Of a stretch of 64,000 nucleotides of DNA, positions 12,274-46,738 are shown piece after piece (the stretch's first letter is position 1; each line of letters begins with the position of its first letter). The DNA is from Escherichia phage vB_EcoM_Skers. The stretch lies in sequence record MW748999.1, one strand, 5' to 3'. The position numbers were made by a program, and so were the translations under genes. A model generated the notes under the pieces. That model saw only the letters and a program-made list of their open reading frames with translations, was not told where the DNA came from and searched no databases.

Positions 12274-13302
12274 TTAAAATTTACAATATTTCATAAACCG
12301 CATTTTAGCCATCAGACCTTGTACGGTGTTCTCTTTGATATATTCCATGATCTGGTCGCGTGTAGCGCCCTCGTCCTGAATCATGGCGTTAACGTCTTTA
12401 GAATGCCACGGGCAGCGATCCCACAAAACAATCTTTTCCCCTGCATTGATAAACTTTTCCAGTCGGTGCATTGTATCGGCAGACCGTGGTTCCGCATCAA
12501 GTACAAACACTCGCTGATCAGGGAAAGGAATTTCATCTAATCCCAAAGTACCGCCAGTAATTGCACACCCGTTATCAATAAACAATGAATCGATCGGACC
12601 TTCTAAGAAATACACAGGTTTACTCGGATCGGCGCGTTCAAGACCATAGACCTTACTCGCTAACTCATGAGTTTTAATCGTCATATATTTGGTCTTTCCG
12701 TAATCCTTTCTCAATGCTCGCCCCTGAATGGATTCTATCTTGTTCTCGCGGTTAAAGATAGGAATCACTAAACGCGGTTCAGGTTGTGGATTCTTGAAAG
12801 TATCAGCCTTAATGTGATTTGCTACCTTTTGCCATTCTCTCGTGAAATACAGAAGATCCCATTTATCGTGAGGAATACAGCGATCACTGACATACTTTAT
12901 TATAGGATGATTAGCCGGAAGAGTATCTAATCTCTCGCAGAAAGGCAATGTTTGCACTTTCTTAATCTCCGGCTTTTCTACCTTTTTCAGTGGCTTGAAC
13001 GTGGTGTTCTTGTGGTCGCCTTGTTCCTTCCGTCTCTCCATAAGCCATTCCCTGAATAGGTCCGGCTTATACTGTTTGAGAAATTCACCTAACGGCTGAT
13101 TGTAGTTACAGTTGAAACAACCACAACGCAAACTATCTTTATAGGTATAGATACGGAATCGCGCTTGAGTATGATTTTTCTTTGAGTCACCGCAGATCGG
13201 ACAACTACAGACCAGCGTAAATGAGCTAGTATGCAACCGTTTAAAATTTCGTTCGCCGTATATGGCTTTTTCCGCTATTTCATAATCTGCGTAGTAAATC
13301 AT
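12274..13302 (-). CDS. 61: DNA primase
   Basis: 342 aa (same as T4 gp61); zinc-ribbon CPICGDSKKN...CFNCNY; Toprim-like core. Confidence 0.85.
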   Translation of the reverse strand: MIYYADYEIAEKAIYGERNFKRLHTSSFTLVCSCPICGDSKKNHTQARFRIYTYKDSLRCGCFNCNYNQPLGEFLKQYKPDLFREWLMERRKEQGDHKNTTFKPLKKVEKPEIKKVQTLPFCERLDTLPANHPIIKYVSDRCIPHDKWDLLYFTREWQKVANHIKADTFKNPQPEPRLVIPIFNRENKIESIQGRALRKDYGKTKYMTIKTHELASKVYGLERADPSKPVYFLEGPIDSLFIDNGCAITGGTLGLDEIPFPDQRVFVLDAEPRSADTMHRLEKFINAGEKIVLWDRCPWHSKDVNAMIQDEGATRDQIMEYIKENTVQGLMAKMRFMKYCKF

Positions 13303-16698: not shown

Positions 16699-16711
16699 TT
16701 TACTACCATTG

Positions 16712-17782
16712 TTATGCTAACATATCTTCGATTTCTTTGTCAACTGCTTCGTCGCTGATCACTTGCCCCAGCTTATAATGATCGTTGATTGCTTCGTTAA
16801 ACTTATCGTTTGTCAGAAGTGGTTTCCAGAACTCAATGCTATTGGTTTCTTTAGCACGGAACTTGCGTTCTTCGGTTTCCATCTCTCCGGTCTCGGTATT
16901 TAGGATTGAACGAGAATACCAGCCGTTTGACGGTTTCACTACCCAGCCTAACTCTACAGCCAATTCCAGCAAGCCGGAATAAGGATCGATGCCACCGCTA
17001 AATGTTACGCTAATCGGGAACTTAGATTTTTCTTTAACGGTTCGTGATTTTTCCGCATTCAGGATAAAATCATAACCAGTAATTTCGGTTCCTTCTTTCT
17101 GCTGACGACGACCAATAATGAAAACTTCATTGGCTGAATACATCGCGCCAGTACCGCCGGACATAACGGTCTTACTAAACATTTCTTGCGTTTCGTAAGT
17201 GTGGTTAATAGCGATGCACGGGATATCATTCATAGTCAGATACGGCGTAACCATACGGAACAAGCCTTTAAGTGCTTTCGCTCGCGTCATATCCTGTGCG
17301 GATTTCTCATTAATCGCGTCTTCAACTTCTTTTTTACTTGCTAAGTTACCGATTGAGTCAATAAAGATGATCACTTTATCTTCACGGGTAATTTGCTCAA
17401 GCTGGTTCATGATTTCAAATTTAAGTTCTTCGATGTTCTTGATTGGAACATGCACCACGCGATCAGGATCTACGCCCATAGATTCCAGATAAGCGGATGT
17501 AATACCGAACTCAGAATCAAAGAACAAACACGCCGCATCAGGATTCTGTTTCATGTATGCACTAACACAGGTTAATCCCATGTTTGATTTAAAGTGCTTA
17601 GACGGACCAGCAAAGAAAATCAGACCAGATTGAAAGCCTTTTTTAAGATCACCTGAAAACGCAATATTCAGCATCGGGATCTTAGTGCGAGTATTTGTTT
17701 TTTCGTTAAAGAAGCTGGATTTAGACAGTACCGCAGTAGTTTTCAGGGTAGAGTTCTTTTTCAGTTTTTCCAGTACAGACAT
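16712..17782 (-). CDS. uvsX: UvsX recombinase (RecA-like)
   Basis: N-terminus FFNEKTNTRTKIPMLNIAFSG..GLIFFAGPSKHFKSN matches T4 UvsX as recalled. Confidence 0.9.
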   Translation of the reverse strand: MSVLEKLKKNSTLKTTAVLSKSSFFNEKTNTRTKIPMLNIAFSGDLKKGFQSGLIFFAGPSKHFKSNMGLTCVSAYMKQNPDAACLFFDSEFGITSAYLESMGVDPDRVVHVPIKNIEELKFEIMNQLEQITREDKVIIFIDSIGNLASKKEVEDAINEKSAQDMTRAKALKGLFRMVTPYLTMNDIPCIAINHTYETQEMFSKTVMSGGTGAMYSANEVFIIGRRQQKEGTEITGYDFILNAEKSRTVKEKSKFPISVTFSGGIDPYSGLLELAVELGWVVKPSNGWYSRSILNTETGEMETEERKFRAKETNSIEFWKPLLTNDKFNEAINDHYKLGQVISDEAVDKEIEDMLA

Positions 17783-17793
17783 TATTAATACCT

Positions 17794-18021
17794 CTATTCA
17801 GTTAATCCGTAATACTTTAATTGCTTCATTGTTATTCGATCTTTGTAGTGCTCTTGAATTAACTTTTTCATCGCACCAACATCGATCGTCACAAATACTT
17901 CGTTGCTGTGATTTCCGTGAACTTTCTTGAAATGCTCTATGCCTTCCTCACGTCCACGTTTAATCTTTTCAATGTATCTCATAATATATTTCTCACATTG
18001 ACGGGTATCGTCACCCAACAC
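17794..18021 (-). CDS. hypothetical small protein (sits where T4 has beta-gt/42/imm)
   Basis: 75-aa ORF between uvsX and gene 43. Confidence 0.4.
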   Translation of the reverse strand: MLGDDTRQCEKYIMRYIEKIKRGREEGIEHFKKVHGNHSNEVFVTIDVGAMKKLIQEHYKDRITMKQLKYYGLTE

Positions 18022-18043
18022 CCGCCATTATACACACTTTATC

Positions 18044-20722
18044 TTAAATGTCAAACAGGTCAGTCAGAGAAGCAACTTTTTCATATTGCAGCTTTGCAGC
18101 CGTGGTAATGTTCTCCAGTGGTTTGACGAAAGTCTTATTAAACAACAAAGGCCAGTCCAACCACTTCAACACCTCTGATTCAATTTCTGGCGGAATACGA
18201 GTACCGGACAACCAACCAAAACAGATTTCTCCAAACGGATTTCGATCTTTAAGCGGTACAATCATAACCTTCTCGCCTTCACGAATCGGATCTAGTCCGA
18301 ATTTTCGAGCATTACGATTATAACACAATACACTCTTAACCGCATACGGACAACCCTTAATCGGATACCCGTTTGAATCGCTGTATTTCTGTAGGTTGTT
18401 TGCAGATGATACCGCAGCAACCTCAAGATAGTCAAGTTTTCTAAACTCTTGCTCAAAAATACCGTAGTATTCCTGCAATGACTCTTCACCTTCCTGCAAC
18501 ATACGGCGAATACATTCTTTCAGTGATTTCTGACATGCTTTAGGGGTGGAGCTACGTTGCGTTTCCAAGCCCATGATTTTTAGCTTAGGCTCAGCAAAGC
18601 GCGTTCCTTCCATATCCCAAACATTAAGAGCATAACGCTTTTTGCCAGTCCAGAATCCACCGATACCCGCAGATTTCAACGGAGGACCAGCAATTGCCTC
18701 ACGGTCCATAAACATCAAGTGCTCATAGTTGTTCATGTACTCGCATAACTCGCGATATCCCTTGTCGATAATCGGTTCCATTCTATGTTTACCGAAATTA
18801 TCAAGGAAGTCAACAAGTTTTTCGGTATCGTCGAAACGATCTTCCCCGCCAACCTTATCAACAACATTGTTAACCAGCACATAAACGGAGTCAGTATCAC
18901 AATAACGAACATATGCAAAATCAGTTGTTCCGCAAAGCTCGTTTAAGTATTCGTTAATCTTGCGCTCAATCCACTGAATTGCAAGCTGACCGAACAAGGT
19001 GATCGCACTAGCGTTGCGGAGATCATAAAAACGGAATTTAGGATTCCCCAACGCACCATAAAGGGAGTTGATCAAAACTTTTCGAGAAAGCTGGTTTGTA
19101 TTGCACAAGATCGACTCGTCTTTACATTCTTCCAGCAATTTCTCTAAGGCATCTTTACTTAATTCAGAAAGCATCGATTTAAACGCTTCATCGAAGTCGT
19201 GACGTACTTCAACGCTATAGCTAATGGTTCCCCCATAAACATGATTTTCATCGTGTAGAATCGCTTTACAGAGTTCAGCATTGCGATCACATGCCAACAT
19301 CATGTTTTTGTACTGCTTACGCTGATCGAATACCTTTTTAATCTCAATAGGTACGATACCGTGAATATCTTTTCTATACATCCATCCGTTAGGCGAGCAA
19401 GAATACTCATCACTCGGACGTGGTGCAGTTTTATTGATATACTCGTGCATCGGTGCAGCATCAAAAGATCCGGCGATTGTTTCCGGCGAAATGTTAACCT
19501 GTCGAATAATAGATGGATACAGACTTGTTAGGTCAAAGCTCATCATCCAACGGTAAGCATTCGGCACAGGTTCTTTTACAAATGCGCCTGGATACGTCTG
19601 CTTAGGATGTATCTTATTTTCCGGTACTACTTTACCCTCAGCTTTCAGAGATCCGAAGATAATAGCATCCCATACTTTCATCGGGTTATAAACATGGTTA
19701 AATTTAATCTTTGCATAGAAACATAGGCTATACACCAGATCGATAAATCCGCGCTTTTTATCAATCGCCAGCACACGATCAACGTCGCCGATGTTATAAT
19801 CGATGTAAAGTTGATGGTTGTCATCACGCAATTTCTTTAACGGACCATCATAATCAACCTTACCGATTCCGGTCTCATATTCAGCAACATAATCTAATGC
19901 ATATGTTGGTTGAGTCGTAAAGCTAAACTTCTTGTACAGGTCAATATAATCAAGGCTTTCGATCCCCATGATCGTAAATGCTTCACGCTCGTTGCCAAAA
20001 TCATCCTGTGAGATTCGGGATTTAATCTTACCGCACGGGCTTAGACGGTTTGCCGTTCGACTTCCAAACTTATTCCCGATACGTTTAATGATATATGGAA
20101 TATCGAATGTTTCTGTGTTCCAGCCAGTGAAACCAACGGGTCGGTTTTCCTCAAAGAATCGGATGTATTCTAACAGCAATTCATCTTCTGTGTCATAGAC
20201 GTTATAAACAACGCGCTCTACAATATCAGGTCGAAGAATAGACTTGCTAGATTCCCAGATTTCACCGTTTTTTCCTTTCAAATCAAATACAAAGAAACGA
20301 TCATGTACGGAATCATAATGCGTAATTGCATCGATAGGATATTTCGCTTCTTCTGGTTTAGGAAATTCTGGGGCAGTGACCTCAATATCAACCCATGCTA
20401 CACGGATTTTATTTCGGTCATATCGAATCTCGCCTTTATATGTATCGGACAGATAGGAGATGATAAAATCATCCATCCCTAGTGCCTCCTGCCCCATTTC
20501 TCCCATCTTTTTACGCCATTTGTTGGCCTCGTTCATAGATGGGAATTTTTTAGCAATGCAAGGCTTGCCGTAGATATCTTTATAATTCGTAACCATACCA
20601 GGCGCGGCATGATGAAATAAAGTTGGCATATATTCAACGTAACGCTCTTGTTCTTGTCCAGCATCATCAATATAACGCTCGTAGATCTTATCACCCACTC
20701 GCTCACATGACAGAAAATACAT
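18044..20722 (-). CDS. 43: DNA polymerase (family B); start at MYFLS, not the upstream ATG of the track ORF
   Basis: Exo motif WVDIEV, pol motifs DLTSLYPSII and CDTDS; AAGGAG SD 9 nt upstream of ATG at 20722. Confidence 0.9.
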   Translation of the reverse strand: MYFLSCERVGDKIYERYIDDAGQEQERYVEYMPTLFHHAAPGMVTNYKDIYGKPCIAKKFPSMNEANKWRKKMGEMGQEALGMDDFIISYLSDTYKGEIRYDRNKIRVAWVDIEVTAPEFPKPEEAKYPIDAITHYDSVHDRFFVFDLKGKNGEIWESSKSILRPDIVERVVYNVYDTEDELLLEYIRFFEENRPVGFTGWNTETFDIPYIIKRIGNKFGSRTANRLSPCGKIKSRISQDDFGNEREAFTIMGIESLDYIDLYKKFSFTTQPTYALDYVAEYETGIGKVDYDGPLKKLRDDNHQLYIDYNIGDVDRVLAIDKKRGFIDLVYSLCFYAKIKFNHVYNPMKVWDAIIFGSLKAEGKVVPENKIHPKQTYPGAFVKEPVPNAYRWMMSFDLTSLYPSIIRQVNISPETIAGSFDAAPMHEYINKTAPRPSDEYSCSPNGWMYRKDIHGIVPIEIKKVFDQRKQYKNMMLACDRNAELCKAILHDENHVYGGTISYSVEVRHDFDEAFKSMLSELSKDALEKLLEECKDESILCNTNQLSRKVLINSLYGALGNPKFRFYDLRNASAITLFGQLAIQWIERKINEYLNELCGTTDFAYVRYCDTDSVYVLVNNVVDKVGGEDRFDDTEKLVDFLDNFGKHRMEPIIDKGYRELCEYMNNYEHLMFMDREAIAGPPLKSAGIGGFWTGKKRYALNVWDMEGTRFAEPKLKIMGLETQRSSTPKACQKSLKECIRRMLQEGEESLQEYYGIFEQEFRKLDYLEVAAVSSANNLQKYSDSNGYPIKGCPYAVKSVLCYNRNARKFGLDPIREGEKVMIVPLKDRNPFGEICFGWLSGTRIPPEIESEVLKWLDWPLLFNKTFVKPLENITTAAKLQYEKVASLTDLFDI

Positions 20723-20754
20723 AATATAAACTCCTTCACTTACGAAAGACACTC

Positions 20755-20783
20755 ATTATAGGGGAATCGACCTAGTTTGTCAA
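20755..20783 (-). promoter_or_regulatory. sigma70-type promoter upstream of gene 43 (TTGACA-17-TATAAT)
   Basis: Reverse complement TTGACAaactaggtcgattccccTATAAT about 30 nt upstream of the gp43 ATG. Confidence 0.5.
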
Positions 20784-20804
20784 TACCCCTATCCCATCAG
20801 TATC

Positions 20805-21167
20805 TTATCGCCCGATCTGATATTTCTCTATCAGCGTCCACTCTTCTTTCTGTTTGAAAGACAGTACACGGAAATTATTAACTTCGGTAGTTTCAAAATC
20901 ACTATCAATCAGGGTACACAGATTCCACTGCGCCAGAAGTTTTGCAATGTTATTACGGCGTAATTCATCTTCCCACGTCATTTTAACACTACGACCATCT
21001 AATTTCAACAACTCCTTGAAATGAACGATGTAATAGCGCCCTTTCTTCTGGAGAATATGACAAGACTGATACAGTGTCTTGTCACGATTGTTGGCAATGC
21101 CGCAGCGGGTTAAAGTTTCCTTAATTTTAAGGAAGTTTTCAGGACTAATCAAATTAATTTCAATCAT
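20805..21167 (-). CDS. regA: RegA translational repressor
   Basis: 120 aa; near-identical blocks to T4 RegA as recalled (KETLTRCGIANN.DK.LYQSCHILQKKG.YYIVHFKE, NNFRVLSFKQK). Confidence 0.9.
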   Translation of the reverse strand: MIEINLISPENFLKIKETLTRCGIANNRDKTLYQSCHILQKKGRYYIVHFKELLKLDGRSVKMTWEDELRRNNIAKLLAQWNLCTLIDSDFETTEVNNFRVLSFKQKEEWTLIEKYQIGR

Positions 21168-21168
21168 T

Positions 21169-21747
21169 TTACCACCTTTCTATAATCTTTTTAAGTCGTT
21201 TCCTTTCTGTCTGATTCTTAGTAACACCCGCCAAAAGTTCATCGGTCGCATACGGTTTAATGTGCTTCAATAACTTGTCCATATATCCCTTTTCATTAGC
21301 CAAATCGAGATAAAACCGGGCGTCATCCATATTTACACAATATGCTTTCGCCACTGCCATTAAAACCAATTTTTGGTCCAATTCTTCTGTTAGTTTAGCC
21401 CATTTACCGTATCGTTTCCCCTTAGAAATACTCTGTAAGAGATAATCAAAATGCATTTGATCTGGGAGGCCATGACCGATTAAATTCATCACATACGCGC
21501 TATATAGGCAATCTGCGTGCTGGGAAAGAGCGGTATTAATCCATCTCTGATTGTATGCAGAATTATTCCCAACATTCACGCGCTGTTTATCTAAGGTGAT
21601 ATGATCCATCAGAGCAAATAATGCATTGTCGGTTTTCTCGGTGAATGTATCCGCTAATTCAGACACCTTTTCCCAATCACGAGAGCGCCATGCAATTTCA
21701 TGCTCGTTTAATTGTGTATCATCTTCACCGAAAAATTGACCTAACAT
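21169..21747 (-). CDS. 62: clamp-loader small subunit
   Basis: 192 aa; position between gene 44 and regA with overlapping stop/start. Confidence 0.7.
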   Translation of the reverse strand: MLGQFFGEDDTQLNEHEIAWRSRDWEKVSELADTFTEKTDNALFALMDHITLDKQRVNVGNNSAYNQRWINTALSQHADCLYSAYVMNLIGHGLPDQMHFDYLLQSISKGKRYGKWAKLTEELDQKLVLMAVAKAYCVNMDDARFYLDLANEKGYMDKLLKHIKPYATDELLAGVTKNQTERKRLKKIIERW

Positions 21748-22721
21748 TATACGAACTCCAATTCAACCATTAATTGCATTAACAAAAAGACAATGTGAAT
21801 CTCTTTATCAGCCGCGTGCGCAAACATCTGATTATTTTCACCGATAATCTCGGTCAGACGAATAATCGACGCTGGCTTAACTTGAGTATACAACTCATTA
21901 TAAAGTTTCTTGATAAATTGAGGGTATGTATTGGTATATCGCGGTGCAAGTTTACGCACATTAGCAAACTGTTTAGTTTTCAGTGCTTCCACCACATCGG
22001 TTACTTCGGTATTGCTACTTTCGATAACCATGCTCAATACGCCAGCATCAATTTTACCATGTTTAGCGTAGCGGTCCAAAAGTTTCATTACGCGTCGGAA
22101 GTCTGGGAAGTTCTGCTTAACCAATTCCGCTAATACGCGCATTTCTTCTACTGGTACACCTTCTTTATCAAGAATTGCTTTACACCGGACGATCATTTCT
22201 TTCATCATGCGAAGCTGATCATCTTTAGTCGGAGATCCAAACGTGATGGGGTCAAAACGAGATCGTAACGCTGGGATAATACCTTCTAGATCGTTTGCTG
22301 TGATAATGAATGTTACATTGTTTGAGTATGCCTCAGAGAAACTACGCAAGTGTCTTTGAGCGTCAGCCAACCCCGCTCGGTCATACTCATCGATAATAAC
22401 AACTTTGCCTTTTTCTCGTTTTTCTTCATCGAGTGATACACTCTGCGCAAAGCGTGTAATCTCATCGCGGATAAAATCAATCTTACAATCTGCGCCGTTA
22501 ACAAACAGATAATCAACACCCACATCTTCGCAAAGCGCCTTAGCAACGGTTGTTTTACCAGTACCCGGCGATGGGCTATGCAGGATCATAGAAGGGATTC
22601 GGCCTTGCTTAACAATCTGCGCGAAGATCTTTTTATCTGCTTCCGGCAGAATACATTCAGAAATTGATTTCGGACGGTATTTCTGTTCCCACTGAAACTC
22701 ATTTTCATTAACACTCAGCAT
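21747..22721 (-). CDS. 44: clamp-loader ATPase (RFC-like); start at MLSVNENEF
   Basis: EQKYRP...ILHSPSPGTGKTTVAKALC matches T4 gp44; GAGGTGA SD upstream of ATG at 22721. Confidence 0.9.
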   Translation of the reverse strand: MLSVNENEFQWEQKYRPKSISECILPEADKKIFAQIVKQGRIPSMILHSPSPGTGKTTVAKALCEDVGVDYLFVNGADCKIDFIRDEITRFAQSVSLDEEKREKGKVVIIDEYDRAGLADAQRHLRSFSEAYSNNVTFIITANDLEGIIPALRSRFDPITFGSPTKDDQLRMMKEMIVRCKAILDKEGVPVEEMRVLAELVKQNFPDFRRVMKLLDRYAKHGKIDAGVLSMVIESSNTEVTDVVEALKTKQFANVRKLAPRYTNTYPQFIKKLYNELYTQVKPASIIRLTEIIGENNQMFAHAADKEIHIVFLLMQLMVELEFV

Positions 22722-22786
22722 ATAATCACCTCTCACAAATTACATCATTAAAACGGGGAGTATTTACACTCCCCACAAACATTATA

Positions 22787-23476
22787 TTAGTCGGTGTAGC
22801 TGGAGTCAAGGTCACACGCGATCATATAAGATACGGTTTCACTTGCCAGCCATACAGCCTTACGGCGAGTGAAGCTCAGTTTGTAATCGCCGAAGTCAGT
22901 AGCAACCAGTTTCATGTTATCTTTACGAATAAAGAAATGGAAGTCGGCGGTTCCGGCATATTCGCCCATGTCAAGACAAAACATCTCATTAGGATTATTT
23001 TTGTCAATCTCTTCCCAACCTTTGATCATCAGACGACCATCAATCGGAAGAAATTCAAGGCGGTCCACTTTAAGCTGATTGCTCATTTTCATAAGCTGTT
23101 TCAGATCGTCGTTGCTCAGTTCGTAATCTACATCGCTTGCAGGTGGAGTAACTCGGCCTTTCGGTGATACGATAGCAGCAGCACTAGCACCAGGATAATT
23201 AATTTTCAGACGATCATTAGACACACGAATGTTTCCGGTGCGGTTATCAACCGTAATATCTGCTTCATCGCCTACCAGATTCAGAATACCCAAGAAAGAG
23301 TTAAGATCATAGATCCCAATTTCGTGTTCCAGTTCTTGATTCAGAGTCGCTTCACCATATACAACGTTTGTCATGTTTTTGGTGATCAGGACGTTTCCTT
23401 TTTTCAGGATGATACCTGGGTTAATAGCGGAAAAGTTTTTCAGGGTAGCAATGGTTTCTTTAGTCAGTTTCATCAA
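22787..23476 (-). CDS. 45: sliding clamp
   Basis: 229 aa; N-terminus KLTKETIATLKNFSAINPGI and IYDLNSFLGIL match T4 gp45 as recalled. Confidence 0.85.
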   Translation of the reverse strand: MMKLTKETIATLKNFSAINPGIILKKGNVLITKNMTNVVYGEATLNQELEHEIGIYDLNSFLGILNLVGDEADITVDNRTGNIRVSNDRLKINYPGASAAAIVSPKGRVTPPASDVDYELSNDDLKQLMKMSNQLKVDRLEFLPIDGRLMIKGWEEIDKNNPNEMFCLDMGEYAGTADFHFFIRKDNMKLVATDFGDYKLSFTRRKAVWLASETVSYMIACDLDSSYTD

Positions 23477-23503
23477 ATCACCTTTATCATGTTAATCAAT
23501 TAA

Positions 23504-23902
23504 TTACGGGTTTACTTCGTGCTCATTTTGAATCTTTAGCATTCTTTCGATAAATTTTTTCTCGGCTTCCTTATCGGATGAGTGAGTATACTTCAATCCA
23601 ATGTAAGCTGTCAAGTATTGTTGCAGAGCATAGACAGTAACAGGATTCTTTGCGGTCTTTTTTCCGTCGAGATATACCAGATCACCACGAACATCAAACG
23701 CAAGTTTACGACGAATCACATCATCAACAAATTTATCTAGGACAAAATACCACTCAATACACTCTATCCCGTGACGGTAGTTCATTACATCATTATCTTT
23801 GATATAGTCAAACGGAATATGACATAATTTACTATTTTGTAGGATGAATAGCATTTGTTCTTTTAAGCTCATACGTTTCATTCTATCACTTCCCATCAGC
23901 AA
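23504..23902 (-). CDS. hypothetical protein (RpbA position)
   Basis: 132-aa ORF upstream of gene 45; synteny only. Confidence 0.35.
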   Translation of the reverse strand: MLMGSDRMKRMSLKEQMLFILQNSKLCHIPFDYIKDNDVMNYRHGIECIEWYFVLDKFVDDVIRRKLAFDVRGDLVYLDGKKTAKNPVTVYALQQYLTAYIGLKYTHSSDKEAEKKFIERMLKIQNEHEVNP

Positions 23903-24278
23903 TTGCGATCAGACGAGTTACTACTACGCTAGCGGCTTCAATCAGCAGTTCATCAGTGTCAATCTGATAACCCTTTTCGAGAATATCTTTACCTCGAATA
24001 GTTTTAGCGCCTTTAGCAATTGAATCATCGTAATACTTGCGCATTGCCGCGATCCATTCTTTTTGCACCATATCATCAATATGCGCGTACAGTTCAAAGC
24101 GTGCTTGCTGCGGGATAACCTTCATTTTAGCTTTCTCGCTTTCCGGCATTTGTAGTACCCACGCTTTACGGATCTTGTTCATTGCTCGGTCAAATTCGAG
24201 ACTGGTTTTCTTGTTCTGAATGTCTGCTACAGTAATTTTAGCCAGGTTTGCGGAATTAGTCATAATATTAATCTCCAA
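23886..24278 (-). CDS. hypothetical protein
   Basis: 130-aa minus-strand ORF. Confidence 0.4.
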   Translation of the reverse strand: MEINIMTNSANLAKITVADIQNKKTSLEFDRAMNKIRKAWVLQMPESEKAKMKVIPQQARFELYAHIDDMVQKEWIAAMRKYYDDSIAKGAKTIRGKDILEKGYQIDTDELLIEAASVVVTRLIAIADGK

Positions 24279-24292
24279 ATAAAATCAGTATA

Positions 24293-24523
24293 TCACGTTC
24301 TAAAGTTTGTTGCAACCCCAGCATCAGGGTAATCAAGTTTATCAAAGTTGGGGACCAGCATAAACTCATGATGACGGCAAGACAACATTTTTGTTATGTC
24401 TTCATCGCTGTATATGCTGTTTTTCATATCCCCCATACTAACTACATATTCTTCACCGGAATATAGATTGATTAAGGTATACAATTCTAACTCCGGCTGC
24501 GTTACTCTGTCAAATGTTAACAT
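24293..24523 (-). CDS. hypothetical small protein
   Basis: 76-aa minus-strand ORF. Confidence 0.35.
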   Translation of the reverse strand: MLTFDRVTQPELELYTLINLYSGEEYVVSMGDMKNSIYSDEDITKMLSCRHHEFMLVPNFDKLDYPDAGVATNFRT

Positions 24524-26192
24524 TCATTTCAGTGAATCGCCCACGTTTAACCATCTTGAGATGACGGCTAAAATCATCAGGGTTATGGTCACGATGGCTG
24601 ATAATATACACGTTATCATCTAACTTGTCAATGATGGAATCAAGTGCTTTTACGCCTTGAACGTCCGTAGCCCCATCATAAATTTCGTCGAGTACCAACA
24701 AAGAAATATTAGTACCAGATACTTTACCAGCAACATCACGCCATGTAAAGAGCATCGCAAGGTCAATACGTGCTTTTTCGCCTTGACTGAATGATGTATA
24801 CGAAAACGATTCACGCCCCCGTGATTTGATTGTTTCGTTAAACTCTTCATCTAGCGTAAAGATATAATCCGCTTCCATGATATCTAGATAATACGCAATC
24901 CGATCATTGAAATATGGAATATATTTCTTGACGATAGACGCCTTAACACCGGAATCCTTCAACATTTCTGTTACAAATCCACGATGATATTTTTCAAGAA
25001 CTAGCTTTGATTTTTCATTAGTAATCTCTACCAGTTCGTGTTCCAGTTTAGCAAGTTCTTCGGAATTGTCAACCCTTTCTTTTTGTAATTCCTGAATTGC
25101 TTTCTGGATCTGTTTAGCCCGACCTACAGATGCCGTTAAATTCGCTCTCTGTGACTCTATAGCGCGTTTAATTTCCAAGACCTTAGTTTGTGCTGTCTGG
25201 AAAGAATTGGCCTTCTCCGCGTATTCTACGCGTTTCTCGTCAATCAGAGACAGTTTATGTTCTGCTTGTGCTTTTTGTTCGCGTACAGCTTGATCATTAC
25301 CTTGAATGATCGGTTGTGTGCACGTAGGACAGACCCCGCCTTTCTCATGCATATGAATAACACGGTCAAAGTTCTGGATCTGCGCACCAATCTGTGCGAT
25401 AGCCGTATTAATTTTAGCCAATGCCGCGCTAGGATCTTCCGGCATAACAACAGCCAATAGCTCATCGGTCAAGCGCGTTTCTTCGGCTTTAAATGCTTTA
25501 GCCGATTCTACCTCTTTATCATACATATTCTGTAAACGCTGGATATTCTCGGCACTCGCCTTGCTAGCGTCTTCTATGTACTTTTTATGAGTGTTGATTT
25601 GTTGCTGAACGTGATTAGCTTTCATTTCCTGCATTTGGATATTCTGGGTAATCTCGCGCACATACGCTTTATTCAGTTTATCCATTTCGCCTAGCGTAGC
25701 AATATCAAGCAAATCCTCTACCAGTTTACGGCGACCCGCTGCCGGAAGACTCATAAACGGAACATAACCAGCAGTGCCTAAAACAACGATCTGTTTGAAG
25801 CTGGCTAGGTTCATGCCTATGATACCTTCAAAATATTCCTGAAAGTCTTTGGTGCTTGCGCTCTCGTCGATCTTTTGACCGTCGCGATGCACTTCGAATA
25901 CTTCCGGCTTTTGACCACGTTTGATATAAAACTCTTTCCCGTCCAGTTCAAACCAGACTTCGACTAACAGTTTCTTTTTGTTGACGCTGTTAATCAATTG
26001 GCCTTTCTTGATACTACGAAACGGTTTACCGAACAACACAAAGCAAAGCGCCTCGATCATGGTCGATTTACCAGCACCGTTAACACCAGTGATTAGTGTC
26101 TTTTTGAATCCGTCTAGCTGAATCTCAACAGGTTCAGCACCCACGCTCATTATATTTTGATAGCGCAAGGTTTTAAAATTTAACTTTGCCAT
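24510..26192 (-). CDS. 46: recombination nuclease subunit (Rad50/SbcC-like ATPase); start at MAKLNFKTL
   Basis: Walker A GVNGAGKST; N-terminal block matches T4 gp46; coiled-coil middle; CPTC zinc hook. Confidence 0.85.
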   Translation of the reverse strand: MAKLNFKTLRYQNIMSVGAEPVEIQLDGFKKTLITGVNGAGKSTMIEALCFVLFGKPFRSIKKGQLINSVNKKKLLVEVWFELDGKEFYIKRGQKPEVFEVHRDGQKIDESASTKDFQEYFEGIIGMNLASFKQIVVLGTAGYVPFMSLPAAGRRKLVEDLLDIATLGEMDKLNKAYVREITQNIQMQEMKANHVQQQINTHKKYIEDASKASAENIQRLQNMYDKEVESAKAFKAEETRLTDELLAVVMPEDPSAALAKINTAIAQIGAQIQNFDRVIHMHEKGGVCPTCTQPIIQGNDQAVREQKAQAEHKLSLIDEKRVEYAEKANSFQTAQTKVLEIKRAIESQRANLTASVGRAKQIQKAIQELQKERVDNSEELAKLEHELVEITNEKSKLVLEKYHRGFVTEMLKDSGVKASIVKKYIPYFNDRIAYYLDIMEADYIFTLDEEFNETIKSRGRESFSYTSFSQGEKARIDLAMLFTWRDVAGKVSGTNISLLVLDEIYDGATDVQGVKALDSIIDKLDDNVYIISHRDHNPDDFSRHLKMVKRGRFTEMNVNI

Positions 26193-26436
26193 TAATCCAC
26201 TCCGCAATCACACATTCCATAATATTAAATGCTAACACATCTTCATCAATGTTGTAAACACTTGCTGCCTTCACTTTAACTAATGTGTCTCTGCGATCTG
26301 GCAGCATGATCACATAATCCAGTGTCGCAGGATCATATGTCATAAAGGGATCAATGTAAACCCCTTTATTCAGTGCCAGATATTCGCGAAGACCTTCTAT
26401 AACCCTATGTCTAAGGTAGGTCATCGATAGAATCAT
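26173..26436 (-). CDS. hypothetical protein
   Basis: 87-aa minus-strand ORF. Confidence 0.4.
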   Translation of the reverse strand: MILSMTYLRHRVIEGLREYLALNKGVYIDPFMTYDPATLDYVIMLPDRRDTLVKVKAASVYNIDEDVLAFNIMECVIAEWINGKVKF

Positions 26437-27029
26437 TTTAGTTTATGTTCCTCTAAAAATTCTTCAATTTCACCTTGCAGGTCTTCCGCTTGCTGTTCCA
26501 GAATATCGCGAAATTCACCTACAGTCAAGCGGTAATCACATTTCACCAGTCGATGCGGGAGAATATACCCTTTATACATTGTCTCTGACGCTTCCAGGAA
26601 TACCCCACTATGCATGACAGAGATCCAACCTGTTAACGTCAATGGAGTATTCGGAAAATAATACTTGCTGGATTGTTTCCACTGTACGAAAGCACCATAT
26701 ACAATCGGATTATATTCACCAACCACACTCTTAATAATGGATTCTACTTTGTCTTTTACAAAGTCGCCAATGTCCATAGTTACCATCAAATCCTGTGGAT
26801 GAATCACTTTAAGGTAACGACGATAACCGTCATCATACCACATCTTAACCACTGGCTGACCCCACATTTTAGCAATACGCGCTTTCAGATAGCCATAGAT
26901 CGGATTCTTGTAATATGATTGTTTTAGTGTGTATGTGTGCACCAATTTAATAAAATGTTCCATTACCAGCAAATCAGAATCAGCCGCGACCATAGTCGTA
27001 TTCATAATATGTTCCTCGTTCAATCTCAT
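26433..27029 (-). CDS. hypothetical protein (start probably internal Met)
   Basis: 198-aa minus-strand ORF between genes 46 and 47. Confidence 0.4.
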   Translation of the reverse strand: MRLNEEHIMNTTMVAADSDLLVMEHFIKLVHTYTLKQSYYKNPIYGYLKARIAKMWGQPVVKMWYDDGYRRYLKVIHPQDLMVTMDIGDFVKDKVESIIKSVVGEYNPIVYGAFVQWKQSSKYYFPNTPLTLTGWISVMHSGVFLEASETMYKGYILPHRLVKCDYRLTVGEFRDILEQQAEDLQGEIEEFLEEHKLK

Positions 27030-27297
27030 ATTGTTTCAGGTCTTCTAAAAGTTCATCCACTGCTTGTTTCAGCACATGACGCAGCGTAAAGTAATAACTT
27101 TCATCAAATTCTATTTCCGCGCGAGGAATAGAGCGAAACTTACACTTAACAGTAGTATCGGTGAGTCGCTTTTCGACCATCATCCGAACTTCTTCATGCT
27201 CTTTGGAATACCATACATCAACGGAGATCCCCTTACGTCGAGCAAACATAGGCAACGCTGAATTAAATTCCATTACTTTTTGTGCAAGTGTTTTCAT
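26980..27297 (-). CDS. hypothetical protein
   Basis: 105-aa minus-strand ORF. Confidence 0.4.
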   Translation of the reverse strand: MKTLAQKVMEFNSALPMFARRKGISVDVWYSKEHEEVRMMVEKRLTDTTVKCKFRSIPRAEIEFDESYYFTLRHVLKQAVDELLEDLKQYEIERGTYYEYDYGRG

Positions 27298-27557
27298 CGT
27301 ACAGACTCCATAGATCCACGCGCAATAACATTCTGGGTAATATCAGCAACCTTACGGGATACGATGTTTGTTAGCCCCTCTTTGGTGATATTTTCACGAT
27401 CAAATGGGATTTCGTCATGAGTCCACAAACCATAGTTAGACCGAAATGATAGCATATACTGACCATCTCGCACAACCTCAAATACATGGATCTTAGTGAA
27501 TTTCGATAAACCTTCGTTGATTTCTTTCAGTGCATTAGTAATCATAACAACCTCCAA
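27294..27557 (-). CDS. hypothetical protein
   Basis: 87-aa ORF; GGAGG SD. Confidence 0.4.
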   Translation of the reverse strand: MEVVMITNALKEINEGLSKFTKIHVFEVVRDGQYMLSFRSNYGLWTHDEIPFDRENITKEGLTNIVSRKVADITQNVIARGSMESVR

Positions 27558-27571
27558 TCAATTTTTAGAGA

Positions 27572-27599
27572 GTATAACGGGGATTTCTCCCCGCGTCAA
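27572..27599 (-). promoter_or_regulatory. promoter candidate (TTGACG-16-TATACT) with GGGGA/TCCCC hairpin in the spacer
   Basis: Motifs read on the minus strand upstream of ORF starting at 27557. Confidence 0.35.
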
Positions 27600-28625
27600 C
27601 TAACTTTTTGCGCTATTTACTTCGGCTAAAAGTTCATCAGAAATACGCTTGACCGCCGCAAGTTCTTCCGGTTCTAGGTTTTGTTCTTCCAGATATTCAT
27701 AGACCATCTGAATAGTGCTTTTAACTTCAATAACACCTGTTTCCTGTGATGCGCTACTCTCCAGCTTATGGACCACTTTTAGCTTGTGCACAACGGACTC
27801 TAACGCGCTTTCTAACTTAGTTAACCCATTATCAGCGACCGTTGCGATAAGACGCACACTAAGCCCTTTAAAGCGTTCTACGTCGATTTTATCATCTGAC
27901 GGGTAAGTGATACGCACATGATAAGTTTTGTCATTCTGAATAAACTCTTTTTTGTGTGTATCGGTATCGAATACCCAAAAACCACGAGGGTCGTTTTCGT
28001 CACCCGCCGTTAGTGTGTATGGTGTACCGATATATGTTACGTTACCGCCATCGCTGATAGTATGAAAATGACCGGAAAACACTTCACGGTATTTCTTTAG
28101 GAAGTCCGCGCTATAACCTTCGGATTTTAGTCCTTTATAGAAATAGTAGCCAGACAATTCCCAATGGCCTACACAATATTCACTGAATGAGTTTTGAATA
28201 AACTCTAAAATCTCTGATTTATTGTCATCACAAAACCACGGGAACAGATCAAATGATACACCATCAAAGGTAACTGTTTCCGGTTTATCGATAACCTTAA
28301 TGCAATCATACTGGCTTAACACTTCACGCGGTGCGTTAGGCTGGATCTTGTTTCGTTTAAACATATCATGATTCCCGACCGTGGTATAACAAGTAATATC
28401 AGCCTCTTCCAGTAACGGGATGACCTTAGTACGGTTAAATTTCATGGTTTCATGGGTAATTGCTTTTCGGCAATCAAACCAATCCCCTGTTTGAATCCAT
28501 GTCTTAATATTATGCTCTTTGGAGTATTCAACCGCTTTCTTGATGGTATCAAGAATATACTCATGCACCCACGGATCATCGCCACCGATACCAGTATGCA
28601 GATCACCCAAAAGCAAAATTTTCAT
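27600..28625 (-). CDS. 47: recombination nuclease subunit (Mre11/SbcD-like phosphoesterase)
   Basis: 341 aa; MKILLLGDLHTG and GNHD metallophosphoesterase motifs. Confidence 0.85.
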   Translation of the reverse strand: MKILLLGDLHTGIGGDDPWVHEYILDTIKKAVEYSKEHNIKTWIQTGDWFDCRKAITHETMKFNRTKVIPLLEEADITCYTTVGNHDMFKRNKIQPNAPREVLSQYDCIKVIDKPETVTFDGVSFDLFPWFCDDNKSEILEFIQNSFSEYCVGHWELSGYYFYKGLKSEGYSADFLKKYREVFSGHFHTISDGGNVTYIGTPYTLTAGDENDPRGFWVFDTDTHKKEFIQNDKTYHVRITYPSDDKIDVERFKGLSVRLIATVADNGLTKLESALESVVHKLKVVHKLESSASQETGVIEVKSTIQMVYEYLEEQNLEPEELAAVKRISDELLAEVNSAKS

Positions 28626-28715
28626 AGTCTCTTCCTCTCTTCGTTTTCGATGCTCTCACTATATCACAGAAAAATAAAAAGGGAAACCCCTTTCAGAGTC
28701 TCCCTTATAAAGCCA

Positions 28716-29030
28716 TTACAGCATACTTAATACCGTTTGCCGTGTACTAATCCACATAGCAGAAAGCAGTTCTGGCGTGTGTGGCTGTTTGTAGATATCA
28801 CGTAACTTTCCGATAGCGTAGATATACGCATCACGGTTATCATCGATGATAGCTTGTTCAGCCCACCGCTTAAGGCGTGCAATCTCTCGCGAGTTCTTAC
28901 GCAAGATCTTTTCCGCTTTCTTAGCGGCTTTAGCCTCTAGTTCTGCTTGTACTTTGTCTACTTCACTCACTGCAATCTGGTCATGCTGTTCATCGTAAGT
29001 CATGTTATTTTCCTTCTGGGATATAATCAA
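28716..29030 (-). CDS. hypothetical protein (coiled-coil rich)
   Basis: 104-aa ORF in the slot where T4 carries alpha-gt. Confidence 0.35.
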   Translation of the reverse strand: MIISQKENNMTYDEQHDQIAVSEVDKVQAELEAKAAKKAEKILRKNSREIARLKRWAEQAIIDDNRDAYIYAIGKLRDIYKQPHTPELLSAMWISTRQTVLSML

Positions 29031-29238
29031 TTATTAAAGAAAATTCATCTTCTGATACATTATAGCTATGTGAGATTGTACCCGTCAAGACCTCAAGATC
29101 CGGTGATTTGATATTGCACGGATCGATAATCACCGGAACGCCGCAATCTCTCAAAAATAATTTGGCGAAATACGGCACAAGGTCAGTTTCAAACTCTGCT
29201 TCTTCCAGCAAACGGGAAATGTTAATTTTCAATCTCAT
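29005..29238 (-). CDS. hypothetical small protein
   Basis: 77-aa minus-strand ORF. Confidence 0.35.
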
Positions 29239-29755
29239 AAAATTGGTCCAGGCTAGGCAATTCCTCGGTCAATACATCTTCAACCTTTGGCGCTTTCGGT
29301 TTATTGACCGATTCCTCGTAGTTGTTGATTTTATCGTAAATGTCCTGTATGAATGCCTCATCAGCAATCTGGCACATATCAGCGTCGCGTTCGTCATATA
29401 CATGATGCACAAAATATTTGTATTTTGCGGCTGTCGCTGTTCTCTCTTTTTTAATGCGCTGTACAAAAGCATTAAAGCACGCTTGCGTGATGTAAGCATG
29501 AGGATTTTTATACTTTGTCTCGTCAAAATTAATCAAACCCTTGACCGCCGCTTCGATTCCGTCGTCGATCATTTCTTCGCGCCATGTTTGACTATAACCA
29601 GAAAAGTTAAAACGACGTGATAGATTTTTAGAGATTTGCATAATTGCTAGGCCGATTTGATCGCTCATTGGAACTTGCCGACCTTCTGCTGCAATTCGTT
29701 GTTTCCAACGGCAAATTTCTTCGTAAAGCTCTTTATTGTTTACATAATCAGACAC
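29222..29755 (-). CDS. 55: late-transcription sigma factor
   Basis: [55 protein letters not shown] match T4 gp55 almost exactly. Confidence 0.9.
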
Positions 29756-29795
29756 TTCGCACCCTCGCTATTATTTAGGAAATAACCCTTTCGGA

Positions 29796-31265
29796 CTATT
29801 CCCCATTACCATTATACTTTCTTTGTTTAGTTATCCACACTCTAACCATCTCTACTGATTCACCGTCAGACGGGTCAAGAGTTTTTCCCTTTTTCTTCAT
29901 GCGGTACTTAAATCCGTTAAATCTTGCATTCTCTTGTTCGTTAAAGTCGAACATCTTTTTAAATGATTTTCGCCCTTTACGCTCACCACATTCTAGCGGA
30001 ATCATTCGGTCTGTTATTACATTGGCATTAGGTAGAAACGTTTTTAGATAATCGACCAACGCCCAATCAGGAACATATAGATTAACATTCTCCTTGCTCT
30101 CGTTGTCTCTCAGGTTACAACGCAAACATAATTGAAATGCTGGTTCCAGATAATCAGACACATGACGCGCTTTCAAAAACTCGTTTGTTGGGAGATCGCA
30201 ACTATTAGCAAGACCTTTTAAAATATCAATCTCCCATCGTTGAGGGTTAAAGCTGAACATCACAGCAACATTTTTATGATGAATGTAAGAGTTAAGACCA
30301 TAAGATCCGTAAGGTATCCGCTCACCAATACCATTTGTACACGCTTCACGGTCCCGATTCACGGTATAAATGAAGTCATCGCCACATTCATTTTTAACCA
30401 TATCAACAAGACGTTCAAAGGTATTGTTTGTTTCTGACTGGTGACGAGACCATCGTTCGGAGTCCGTCATAAGGATGATGTTAACTCTATCTGTATTTTT
30501 ATACTCTTTGAAATATAGTCTGGATTCTAGCGCACTCGGAACAAAATCGCAATTTGCATAGTATCGTAGATACTTCCCACTATATGTATCAAAGAGATTT
30601 GCACATGCTATCGTAACCTTTTTAAAGTCTCCCCACGTACCGTGTTTGTTATCGTTCAAGAAAACAATTTTCGACCCATTCTTCCGGTGTCCTTCGTTAT
30701 GTTTTACCATAACGTTGATTTTCTTCTCTAATAACGCCTCATAAAGCCCTCTAAGAGAAGAATCGATCATATCAGTACCATCCTTTGCACTTTCTATCTT
30801 TTCTTTGATAGCGGCCTTCTCAGAGTCTTTTAGAACTAAGTTCTGTAGGCATTCCGATTCGTCGGCGATTGGTTCGCAATGCTTCGTGATAAGTTCAAGA
30901 TTAGACTTAAACGGATACTCATTAAATTCAACCAGTTGAGGAACTTCATCAATATAAAGAGCATATTCACTAAACATTTTTGAACGTTCCATATTAGATA
31001 ACGCTGTATGTGTGATGAATATCACATCAGCACCATCTTTAACTGATTGCATTATCGACGCTTGCACTGTCTTAAGGCTTCTTAGTCTGGTGCTATCAAT
31101 CAAGACAGCACGACCGCCCATTCTTTTAAACTTATTGTAAGATTGTTCACTTAAAACACGAGATGGCGAAGCAATAACCGCTTTTTCTTTTGTCTCTAGG
31201 ACGTGGGAAAGTATAGCATCCGTTTTCCCCGCCGCTGGCAATGCGATTAATGTTTCAATCTTCAT
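29796..31265 (-). CDS. P-loop NTPase-like protein of unknown function (489 aa)
   Basis: Deviant Walker A ALPAAGKT, Ia-like IASPSRVL, Walker B-like YIDEVPQ; no T4 counterpart recognised. Confidence 0.5.
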   Translation of the reverse strand: MKIETLIALPAAGKTDAILSHVLETKEKAVIASPSRVLSEQSYNKFKRMGGRAVLIDSTRLRSLKTVQASIMQSVKDGADVIFITHTALSNMERSKMFSEYALYIDEVPQLVEFNEYPFKSNLELITKHCEPIADESECLQNLVLKDSEKAAIKEKIESAKDGTDMIDSSLRGLYEALLEKKINVMVKHNEGHRKNGSKIVFLNDNKHGTWGDFKKVTIACANLFDTYSGKYLRYYANCDFVPSALESRLYFKEYKNTDRVNIILMTDSERWSRHQSETNNTFERLVDMVKNECGDDFIYTVNRDREACTNGIGERIPYGSYGLNSYIHHKNVAVMFSFNPQRWEIDILKGLANSCDLPTNEFLKARHVSDYLEPAFQLCLRCNLRDNESKENVNLYVPDWALVDYLKTFLPNANVITDRMIPLECGERKGRKSFKKMFDFNEQENARFNGFKYRMKKKGKTLDPSDGESVEMVRVWITKQRKYNGNGE

Positions 31266-46476: not shown

Positions 46477-46738
46477 TACACGCTTTTAATGCATCAGTCG
46501 CGGTGTCATAGCGAGTATTATCATAGCACCAATAACCATCTGTCAACTGATAAATTAATCCATCCTTTTTAGCTTCGATGAAAGACAATTCTTTGAATGT
46601 TTCTACTTTCTTTGCTGATACTCCACGGTCACGGCGTTTATAGAGTTTAGCTAAAATGCGTTCAGCTTGTTCCTCTTTATCACCAGACAGATCCCAGATG
46701 ATGTTTCGGATATGCTTGATTAATTGTTTAGTGGTCAT
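46448..46738 (-). CDS. hypothetical protein
   Basis: 96-aa ORF downstream of promoter cassette. Confidence 0.4.
   Translation of the reverse strand: MTTKQLIKHIRNIIWDLSGDKEEQAERILAKLYKRRDRGVSAKKVETFKELSFIEAKKDGLIYQLTDGYWCYDNTRYDTATDALKACNDHLRKTTI

Follow-up and report, generated by a model that had tools for sequence, protein, structure and literature searches.

RB49-type phages are relatives of T4 in the genus Krischvirus, and several lines of published evidence describe their DNA. RB49 DNA was cut by HpaII and NheI in digests reported in 2014 (PMC4041780), while canonical cytosines were found by HPLC/MS in Krischvirus TB34 in 2026 (PMC13390438). BREX, whose target is unmodified DNA, is active against TB34 (PMC11341690, PMC13390438), and generalized transduction has been reported for RB49 (PMC8056088, PMC12115623). 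In comparative work, gene 42, alc, and denB were found to be confined to phages with hydroxymethylcytosine (hmC), whereas gene 56 is present in nearly all T4 relatives (Petrov 2010, Table 4, PMC2993671). A survey scores Krischvirus as positive for dCTPase and negative for hmC, denB, and alc (PMC12115623), and the authors of the TB34 paper remark that the hmC genes are absent from their syntenic slots in this genus (PMC13390438). The RB43-type phages (Pseudotevenvirus), compared here by literature descriptions, are other coliphage relatives of T4 with unmodified cytosine. They too are missing the hmC genes, keep homologs of DenA and gp56, and show transduction (PMC8056088, PMC12115623); ndd, however, is present in RB43-type phages and absent in Krischvirus (survey PMC12115623).

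Judged by its sequence, the 64-kb window (the whole stretch of DNA that was analyzed) is the early-gene arm of a Krischvirus phage of the RB49-like, "pseudo-T-even" type. Three segments that together cover the window showed 97-98% nucleotide identity to Krischvirus genomes, and region 16700-30000 was fully covered by each of 58 Krischvirus records, also at 97-98% identity. An RB49 counterpart was found, with order kept, for 127 of the 128 window ORFs, almost all with an amino-acid identity above 95%, and the 2 genomes are collinear. The assignment through these close relatives was unambiguous. From rIIB to gene 3, the window, RB49, and the Krischvirus members phi1, JSE, GEC-3S, W115, FL15, and TB34 agree in gene order. 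T4 and the window have replication, recombination, and nucleotide-metabolism proteins in common, in the same order and at 33-65% identity, and both carry gp56, gp1, cd, td, frd, Nrd, denA, and Dam. The T4 genes without a counterpart in the window are those for gp42, alpha-gt, beta-gt, alc, denB, arn, ndd, ipI, imm, motA, and asiA.

Two intervals of T4 hold genes of the hmC pathway. The first has the order uvsX-segA-b-gt-42-imm-imm.1-43 in the T4 record, and its equivalent in the window consists of the following features:

16712-17782, minus strand: uvsX recombinase (63% identity to T4 UvsX, E 2.5e-151, tblastn)
17794-17982, minus strand: small early ORF, 62 aa from ATG (PHROG 12120, unknown function, E 3e-39)
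18027-18054, minus strand: consensus sigma-70 (early) promoter, TTGACA-16-TATAAT, 12/12 matches, overlapping the end of gene 43
18044-20722, minus strand: gene 43 DNA polymerase, unsplit (55% identity to T4 gp43 over 903 aa, tblastn)

The small ORF at 17794-17982 is the sole gene in the slot that holds segA, beta-gt, 42, imm, and imm.1 in T4. The initial annotation had placed one 75-aa ORF between uvsX and 43; the single ORF stands, but its length does not, 62 aa being more likely. The 75-aa version begins at a GTG at 18021, within approximately 6 bases downstream of the -10 hexamer of the perfect sigma-70 consensus promoter. The PHROG 12120 alignment begins at residue 14 of the 75-aa ORF and RB49p025 is annotated with 62 aa, both of which place the start at the ATG at 17982. 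No Pfam or NCBIfam match was found for this ORF. A role as an analog of Imm was ruled out, as the predicted protein is soluble and charged, in contrast to the strongly hydrophobic Imm of T4. In the RB49 annotation, an early promoter is marked at the corresponding position; the one found here would be expected to drive the small ORF together with uvsX.

The second interval has the order 47-47.1-a-gt-mobB-a-gt.2..5-55 in the T4 record. In the window, this region and the adjoining gene 46 comprise:

24510-26192, minus strand: gene 46, SbcC-like recombination nuclease subunit (51% identity to T4 gp46, tblastn)
26173-27557, minus strand: four ORFs of unknown function (87, 198, 105, and 87 aa) that replace T4 46.1 and 46.2 (93-98% identical to RB49p035-038)
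27600-28625, minus strand: gene 47, SbcD-like nuclease subunit (56% identity to T4 gp47, tblastn)
28679-28706, minus strand: terminator-like hairpin between the a-gt.4 homolog and gene 47 (12-bp stem, then a T run)
28716-29003, minus strand: a-gt.4 homolog, DUF2654 (44% identity to T4 a-gt.4, E 8e-13; Pfam PF10849, 79.9 bits)
29005-29238, minus strand: a-gt.5 homolog (32% identity over 72 aa to T4 a-gt.5, E 6e-8; PHROG 1169, E 4e-29)
29222-29755, minus strand: gene 55, late sigma factor (61% identity to T4 gp55, tblastn)

Only 2 small ORFs were indeed found between 47 and 55, as had been noted initially. Since these are homologs of a-gt.4 and a-gt.5, the T4 neighbors of alpha-gt persist here, and the gap is limited to alpha-gt, mobB, a-gt.2, a-gt.3, and 47.1. 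RB49 has an HNH endonuclease gene (RB49p040) between 47 and a-gt.4 that the window lacks. None of the four ORFs that separate 46 from 47 was assigned to a family in Pfam and NCBIfam scans; the 198-aa ORF among them matches PHROG 16328, of unknown function. In RB49 and other Krischvirus genomes, the uvsX-43 and 47-55 slots are empty in the same way, and gp56 and a dam gene beside nrdC are common to them as well. The empty slots are ordinary variable spots of T4-type genomes, flanked by a promoter and a terminator hairpin, in which homing endonucleases and small ORFs are gained and lost.

The genes missing from these slots were not found elsewhere in the window. Using tblastn, no gp42, alpha-gt, or beta-gt of T4 was detected in it, the best matches (E 1.1, 2.9, and 0.22, respectively) all lying inside unrelated genes. 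When RB49 and SAP, another Krischvirus, were included, the best matches for alpha-gt and beta-gt again lay in unrelated genes (E 0.2-2.9; the T2/T6-type beta-alpha-gt, TAGT, was not among the queries). More broadly, tblastn gave no homolog of gp42, alpha-gt, beta-gt, alc, denB, arn, ndd, or ipI in the window, in the whole of RB49, or in the whole of SAP, while denA, cd, gp1, frd, and td were found to be present by the same type of search with T4 proteins. In RB49 and SAP, the T4 gp42 query matched only the td gene (E 0.006). This is the sole gene of the thymidylate synthase family in RB49, and it encodes a true ThyA (TIGR03284, 283 bits, versus 31 bits for T4 gp42). The possibility that this 410-aa protein is a hydroxymethylase in disguise was therefore rejected; it represents a ThyA that carries approximately 140 inserted aa.

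Both the tblastn searches and the gene order of the T4 record thus bear out that the hmC genes are missing from their T4 syntenic slots, and the complete relatives RB49 and SAP, in which gene 42 and glucosyltransferases could have been located outside the part covered by the window, contain none. Alc, DenB, Arn, and Ndd are T4 functions that either discriminate against modified DNA or protect it. Given that there is no dCMP hydroxymethylase and no glucosyltransferase, nor any Alc, DenB, Arn, or Ndd, the lineage would use normal dCTP for replication and package ordinary cytosine DNA. We consider it very probable that the Krischvirus lineage combines the replication and nucleotide-synthesis genes of T4 with a missing hmC module and ordinary cytosine DNA, along with site loss, Dam, and a retained gp56.

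The composition of the window offers a further line of evidence. It contains 726 palindromes of 6 bp, versus 1053 expected. Among the 53 such palindromes with an expected count of at least 5, 14 are absent altogether, including the EcoRI, HindIII, and BamHI sites, versus 3 of 1826 non-palindromic words (Mann-Whitney p 3e-17). The avoidance is also seen inside 17794-29238 (p 4e-6), and extends to the whole of RB49, where 19 of 60 palindromes are absent. T4, in contrast, lacks none of 60 and shows no avoidance. The deficit is found mostly in palindromes containing G or C (451 observed versus 753 expected), while A/T-only palindromes come close to expectation (275 versus 300); GGCC and CCNGG are also depleted. 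This pattern supports the presence of unprotected cytosine DNA, of which it appears to be an independent signature. The genome may evade type II restriction largely through lost recognition sites rather than through hypermodification, a cause that we infer from a statistical depletion.

One palindrome escapes this trend. GATC has an observed/expected ratio of 1.05 in the window, the highest of the 16 palindromes of 4 bp and the sole one not depleted, whereas in T4 it has the lowest (0.33), so that it is avoided there and spared here. Its methylation could be carried out by a phage enzyme, whose gene lies as follows:

41322-41603, minus strand: nrdC thioredoxin (34% identity to T4 NrdC, E 2e-11, tblastn)
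41612-42424, minus strand: dam, Dam-family N6-adenine DNA methyltransferase (full-length match to T4 Dam at 46% identity, E 5e-64)

The dam gene adjoins nrdC, while the order in the T4 record is 56-dam-61. The protein scored 150.3 bits against TIGR00571 (cut-off 114.85), matched Pfam MethyltransfD12 (PF02086), and has FCGG (SAM-binding) and DPPY (catalytic) motifs identical to those of T4 Dam, in agreement with the initial description of a full Dam relocated beside nrdC. The sparing of GATC fits protection by Dam. As every other 4-bp palindrome is depleted, the phage Dam probably keeps GATC fully methylated, although the Dam of the host could be an alternative cause of the sparing. In the LC-MS text on TB34, the wording is "no detectable modified DNA", with 6mA left unmentioned (PMC13390438). 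Taken together, gene absence, the experiments on RB49 and TB34, and palindrome avoidance with GATC spared support a modification state unlike that of T4, as had been proposed, with GATC methylation itself as a predicted component. This interpretation is right, but it is not new: ordinary-cytosine DNA has been known in RB49-type phages for more than 20 years.

The dam slot of T4 is empty in the window, where genes 56 and 61 lie next to each other, 14 bases apart:

11741-12259, minus strand: gene 56 homolog, dCTPase/dUTPase family, all-alpha NTP pyrophosphatase (49% identity to T4 gp56 over all 171 residues, E 7e-51)
12274-13302, minus strand: gene 61 primase (51% identity to T4 gp61, tblastn)

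The predicted dCTPase had been noted initially as kept, and it appears full length with its catalytic motifs intact: the acidic, metal-binding motifs D-x-DE-x-RE and E-x-K-F-E-x-x-D are identical to those of T4 gp56. It also matched PHROG 173 (NTP pyrophosphohydrolase) and, at 24.8 bits versus a cut-off of 22.9, Pfam dUTPase_2 (PF08761). A search of solved structures with gp56 gave no match, and so no template for substrate specificity; the same was true of RB49p189, for which no match was found. A dCTPase of T4 strength would be paradoxical in a phage with cytosine DNA. The dCTPase activity of the homolog would have to be weaker or better controlled than that of T4, as the phage would otherwise starve its own replication. 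The homolog was presumably retained because it is useful without hmC. Most likely, it removes dUTP and dUDP and bleeds some dCTP and dCDP to dCMP. The dCMP could then be converted to dTMP by the phage dCMP deaminase and thymidylate synthase, for a genome of 40% G+C.

Alternatively, gp56, Dam, or both could be non-functional, decaying relics of an ancestor that used hmC, as the T4 partner of gp56, gp42, is gone and the Pfam match of gp56 is marginal. We regard this as highly improbable. Both proteins are full length and free of frameshifts, show about 50% identity to their T4 counterparts as well as intact catalytic motifs, and are 98.5-99.4% identical to the RB49 proteins. Moreover, almost every T4 relative retains gene 56, even where gene 42 is lacking (PMC2993671), and GATC is the least avoided 4-bp palindrome.

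A single Krischvirus report differs from all others: 5-hmdC and alpha-gentiobiosyl-mdC were found by HPLC/MS in a DNA preparation of SAP, which was also sensitive to BrxU in plaque assays (PMC13390438). These observations would be explained if Krischviruses had a cryptic pathway, not homologous to that of T4, which exchanges cytosine for hmC and gentiobiosyl-hmC under some condition; its genes would be among the many uncharacterized ORFs, of which the window contains a part. However, SAP DNA was the least cut by BrxU, and its modification profile is that of seven Tequatrovirus phages from the same collection (PMC13390438). The SAP genome contains no homolog of gp42, alpha-gt, or beta-gt, and the DNA of TB34 is canonical even though the 2 records represent one genome. 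Both records start at the same base, and they differ by 49 one-base indels, 17 substitutions (14 of which are at CCSGG sites), and one intergenic duplication of 83 bp. As the indels would frameshift the DNA polymerase, UvsX, clamp, gp47, topoisomerase, and NrdB of TB34 (Table S5, PMC13390438), they are assembly errors, and the records describe one genome. Real SNPs were likewise rejected as an explanation of the SAP modification, since the differences are assembly artifacts or motif-specific miscalls, apart from the intergenic duplication. With a SAP record that is effectively the same as that of TB34, a mix-up of stocks or samples is the likeliest cause of the hmC in SAP, and a mixed or mislabelled stock would account for all of these observations. 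In addition, the genus-wide site avoidance argues for long exposure of cytosine DNA. A cryptic pathway thus seems very unlikely to us.

Less probable still is that gene 42 and the glucosyltransferases were displaced to a part of the genome outside the 64-kb window and that the DNA is modified as in T4: although dam shows that genes have moved in this lineage, and absence was established in the window and in relatives, the best collection matches being 97-98% identical to the window rather than its exact genome, whole-genome searches of RB49 and SAP were negative, the genus is hmC-negative in the survey (PMC12115623), alc, denB, and arn, the companions of gene 42 (PMC2993671), are absent as well, and the window shows strong site avoidance, which is not seen in phages with glucosylated hmC such as T4.

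Ordinary cytosine DNA sets the Krischvirus lineage apart from T4 in a way that is real and biologically meaningful, yet it is textbook knowledge for RB49-type phages. Its consequences are known: ordinary restriction, BREX, and Cas nucleases are effective against these phages, host DNA can be transduced by them, and their own DNA lends itself to cloning and cutting. Motif-specific differences that separate the TB34 assembly from that of SAP hint at site-specific cytosine methylation at CCSGG by an uncharacterized Krischvirus methyltransferase, a tentative idea that we consider rather unlikely.

Compared with RB49 and other Krischvirus genomes, the window differs only in mobile or variable ORFs. 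An EndoVII/HNH-like ORF (6370-7128) is extra relative to RB49, and the gp38-like ORF of RB49 is absent. In JSE, kvi, G5211, and others, listed with "DNA polymerase (x2)" and approximately 1.1 kb of extra sequence, gene 43 is split by an insertion, whereas it is intact in the window.

The T4 record was fetched, its genes were translated, and the proteins were used as tblastn queries against the window. The gene orders read from the record are uvsX-segA-b-gt-42-imm-imm.1-43, 47-47.1-a-gt-mobB-a-gt.2-a-gt.3-a-gt.4-a-gt.5-55, and 56-dam-61, matching the reference orders claimed in the initial annotation. The T4 proteins placed the following genes in the window:

11741-12259, minus strand, gp56 homologue
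12274-13302, minus strand, gene 61
16712-17782, minus strand, uvsX
18044-20722, minus strand, gene 43
27600-28625, minus strand, gene 47
28716-29003, minus strand, a-gt.4 homologue
29005-29238, minus strand, a-gt.5 homologue
29222-29755, minus strand, gene 55
41322-41603, minus strand, nrdC
41612-42424, minus strand, dam

The hydroxymethylcytosine (hmC) genes are missing from their syntenic slots, as had been observed. Elsewhere, too, T4 gp42, alpha-gt, beta-gt, alc, denB, arn, ndd, ipI, motA, and asiA gave no significant tblastn match in the window, complete RB49, or complete SAP, while denA, cd, gp1, frd, and td were found by the same searches. A weak gp42 match (E 0.006) proved to be the td gene, which scores 283 bits on TIGR03284, the thymidylate-synthase equivalog, against 31 for T4 gp42. 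This absence is already known. Gene 42, alc, and denB were tabulated only in hmC phages, and gene 56 in nearly every T4 relative (Petrov et al. 2010, Table 4; PMC2993671); a 2025 survey scored Krischvirus as positive for dCTPase and denA and negative for hmC, denB, ndd, and alc (PMC12115623); and a 2026 alignment of the nrdD to rIIA region showed Krischvirus syntenic positions without hmC or glycosylation genes (PMC13390438). The td gene of RB49 (locus L004, 40561-41793, outside the window) is annotated at 410 aa; its match to the ThyA profile is divided into two stretches by an in-frame insertion, approximately 140 aa long, near profile position 110; in T4, the same gene is interrupted by a group I intron.

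Between 47 and 55, the two small ORFs reported initially are present and are homologues of T4's own a-gt.4 and a-gt.5. Between uvsX and 43 there is indeed a single small ORF, but its proposed length of 75 aa does not hold up well. The GTG start at 18021 lies approximately 6 bases or less downstream of the -10 hexamer of a perfect-consensus sigma-70 promoter (18054-18027, TTGACA-16-TATAAT). A length of 62 aa is more likely, because both the PHROG family and the RB49 annotation start at the ATG at 17982. A family assignment was sought for this ORF and none was found; as an Imm analogue it was rejected, the protein being charged and soluble. A terminator-like hairpin occupies the a-gt.4/47 intergenic interval, and homing endonucleases vary among relatives at both slots; the promoter and terminator boundaries would make these slots exchange points. 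RB49 carries an HNH endonuclease gene, RB49p040, between 47 and a-gt.4, which the window lacks (28626-28715). In JSE, kvi, G5211, G2494, PTE-Eco09, and Cognac, gene 43 matches in two pieces with approximately 1.1-1.4 kb extra and is annotated "DNA polymerase (x2)", which points to a polymerase gene split around an inserted element; in the window, gene 43 is intact.

A megablast search of 16700-30000 against 50,697 phage records returned 58 matches, each with full query coverage at 97.7-98.4% identity and none identical. All were RB49-like Krischvirus, including RB49, JSE, GEC-3S, W115, FL15, SAP, and TB34, and both flanks showed the same matching pattern. Among the 128 non-overlapping window ORFs, 127 have an RB49 counterpart in conserved order, nearly all with more than 95% amino-acid identity. 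G+C content is 40% all along the window, and nearly all genes lie on the minus strand.

Phage DNA exposed to type II restriction enzymes tends to lose palindromic recognition sites, a loss for which hypermodified T4 has no need. Word counts were compared with those expected under a maximal-order Markov model.

Occurrence of 6-bp palindromes (absences counted among palindromes with at least 5 expected occurrences)
Window: 726 observed, 1053 expected; median O/E 0.65; 14 of 53 absent
Whole RB49: 1899 observed, 2721 expected; median O/E 0.69; 19 of 60 absent
T4: 2756 observed, 2970 expected; median O/E 0.90; 0 of 60 absent

Sites missing from the window include GAATTC, AAGCTT, GGATCC, TCCGGA, ACCGGT, AGCGCT, and CAGCTG, while of 1826 non-palindromic words only 3 are lacking (Mann-Whitney p 3e-17). 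The avoidance is also seen within 17794-29238, the interval originally annotated (p 4e-6). Palindromes containing G or C carry the deficit (451 of 753 expected) and A/T-only palindromes do not (275 of 300); GGCC, CCWGG, CCSGG, and GGSCC are likewise depleted. GATC, with 377 sites in 64 kb, has the highest O/E of all 16 4-bp palindromes (1.05) and stands 1.6-fold above base-composition expectation. T4, which also encodes Dam, shows the opposite: GATC is its most depleted 4-bp palindrome (O/E 0.33, 191 sites in 169 kb). Judged from sequence alone, this pattern is as expected for cytosine DNA unprotected save at GATC, and supports both halves of the initial suggestion, possibly unmodified or differently modified cytosine plus GATC methylation.

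The gp56-like protein and full Dam are both retained, as stated initially, and dam has moved to a position beside nrdC, whereas in T4 it lies between 56 and 61. The gp56 homologue shares 49-50% identity with T4 gp56 end to end, with identical acidic motifs of the all-alpha NTP pyrophosphatases, and is barely above the Pfam dUTPase_2 threshold. Dam shares 46-47% identity with its T4 counterpart end to end, contains the FCGG and DPPY motifs, and scores 150 bits on TIGR00571 (cut-off 115). Identity to the RB49 counterparts is 98.5-99.4% for the two proteins, and neither has the look of a relic. The retention of DenA and gp56 homologues by RB49 and RB43 has been raised before as an apparent paradox (PMC8056088). 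Replication would use dCTP directly, and the main roles of gp56 would be to hydrolyse dUTP and dUDP and to drain dCTP to dCMP in a moderated way. This drain would supply three phage enzymes that are present in RB49 (dCMP deaminase, thymidylate synthase, and dihydrofolate reductase) and would suit a 40% G+C genome built in a 51% G+C host. Dam, in turn, would complete GATC methylation on rapidly replicating DNA.

Experiments on close relatives have been published. HpaII and NheI cut RB49 DNA, while T4 and T4 gt DNA resist both (PMC4041780). TB34 DNA contained canonical nucleosides only by HPLC/MS and resisted BrxU, a modification-dependent enzyme (PMC13390438); TB34 is also sensitive to BREX (PMC11341690), and RB49 carries out generalized transduction (PMC8056088; PMC12115623). 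Together with the gene absence and site avoidance, these data support a DNA modification state different from that of T4.

SAP, however, was reported to contain 5-hmdC and alpha-gentiobiosyl-mdC and to be BrxU-sensitive, a result its authors call unexplained (PMC13390438); SAP is 99.96% identical to TB34. As this result is of the kind named as refuting in the initial annotation, the SAP (OZ034687.1) and TB34 (OX001802.1) records were compared in full. Both begin at the identical base, which lies in gene 10. The differences comprise 49 one-base indels, of which 42 fall in homopolymer runs, 17 substitutions, and an intergenic tandem duplication of 83 bp in SAP. If the TB34 indels were real, frameshifts would result in DNA polymerase, UvsX, the sliding clamp, gp47, topoisomerase, and NrdB (Table S5, PMC13390438); since such frameshifts are impossible for a viable phage, the indels are assembly errors. 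In 14 of the 17 substitutions, SAP reads CCSGG where TB34 reads CCWGG; of only 32 CCSGG sites in the genome, 14 are affected in this way. The SAP base is shared by RB49 at 12 of these 14 sites and by the window at 3 of the 4 that fall within it. One source of such a CCSGG-specific error could be modified bases at these sites in TB34 DNA; another could be an artefact of basecalling or polishing. By sequence comparison, the two records represent one genome, leaving the modification difference without a genetic basis. The SAP modification profile is that of seven Tequatrovirus phages of the same collection, and BrxU cutting was weakest on SAP DNA (PMC13390438). We infer that SAP is most economically explained by a stock that was mixed or mislabelled, and a cryptic modification pathway is retained as a low-probability alternative.

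The perfect 83-bp duplication (SAP locus L009, approximately 39620-39705), which TB34 lacks and which is not among the variants of Table S5 (PMC13390438), comprises an intergenic promoter/hairpin element between the RB49p186 and RB49p187 homologues, approximately 1 kb from the methyltransferase-like gene RB49p189. RB49p189 (RB49 locus L004, 19581-20297) matched only PHROG 757 ("DNA methyltransferase"), with no match among Pfam families or solved structures. A second methyltransferase-like gene, RB49p143 (RB49 locus L003, 28156-28995), carries the amino-methyltransferase motif NPPF and weakly resembles M.TaqI and HemK-type enzymes. Both genes lie outside the window.

Other differences from RB49 and T4 were seen in the window. 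A 252-aa ORF (6370-7128, minus strand) between gene 39 and the FmdB-like ORF/dexA, with no RB49 counterpart, matches PHROG endonuclease VII/HNH families (E 1e-20), has a 32-aa patch resembling T4 gp49, and is probably a homing endonuclease insertion. The gp38-like adhesin ORF RB49p079 of RB49 (approximately 0.9 kb) is missing (region 46738-46799, gap 46773-46799). Adjoining gene 55, where T4 has small 55.x ORFs only, the window encodes a 489-aa RB49p044 homologue (29796-31265, minus strand) with an N-terminal DEAD/DEAH-like helicase domain (Pfam E 1e-6).
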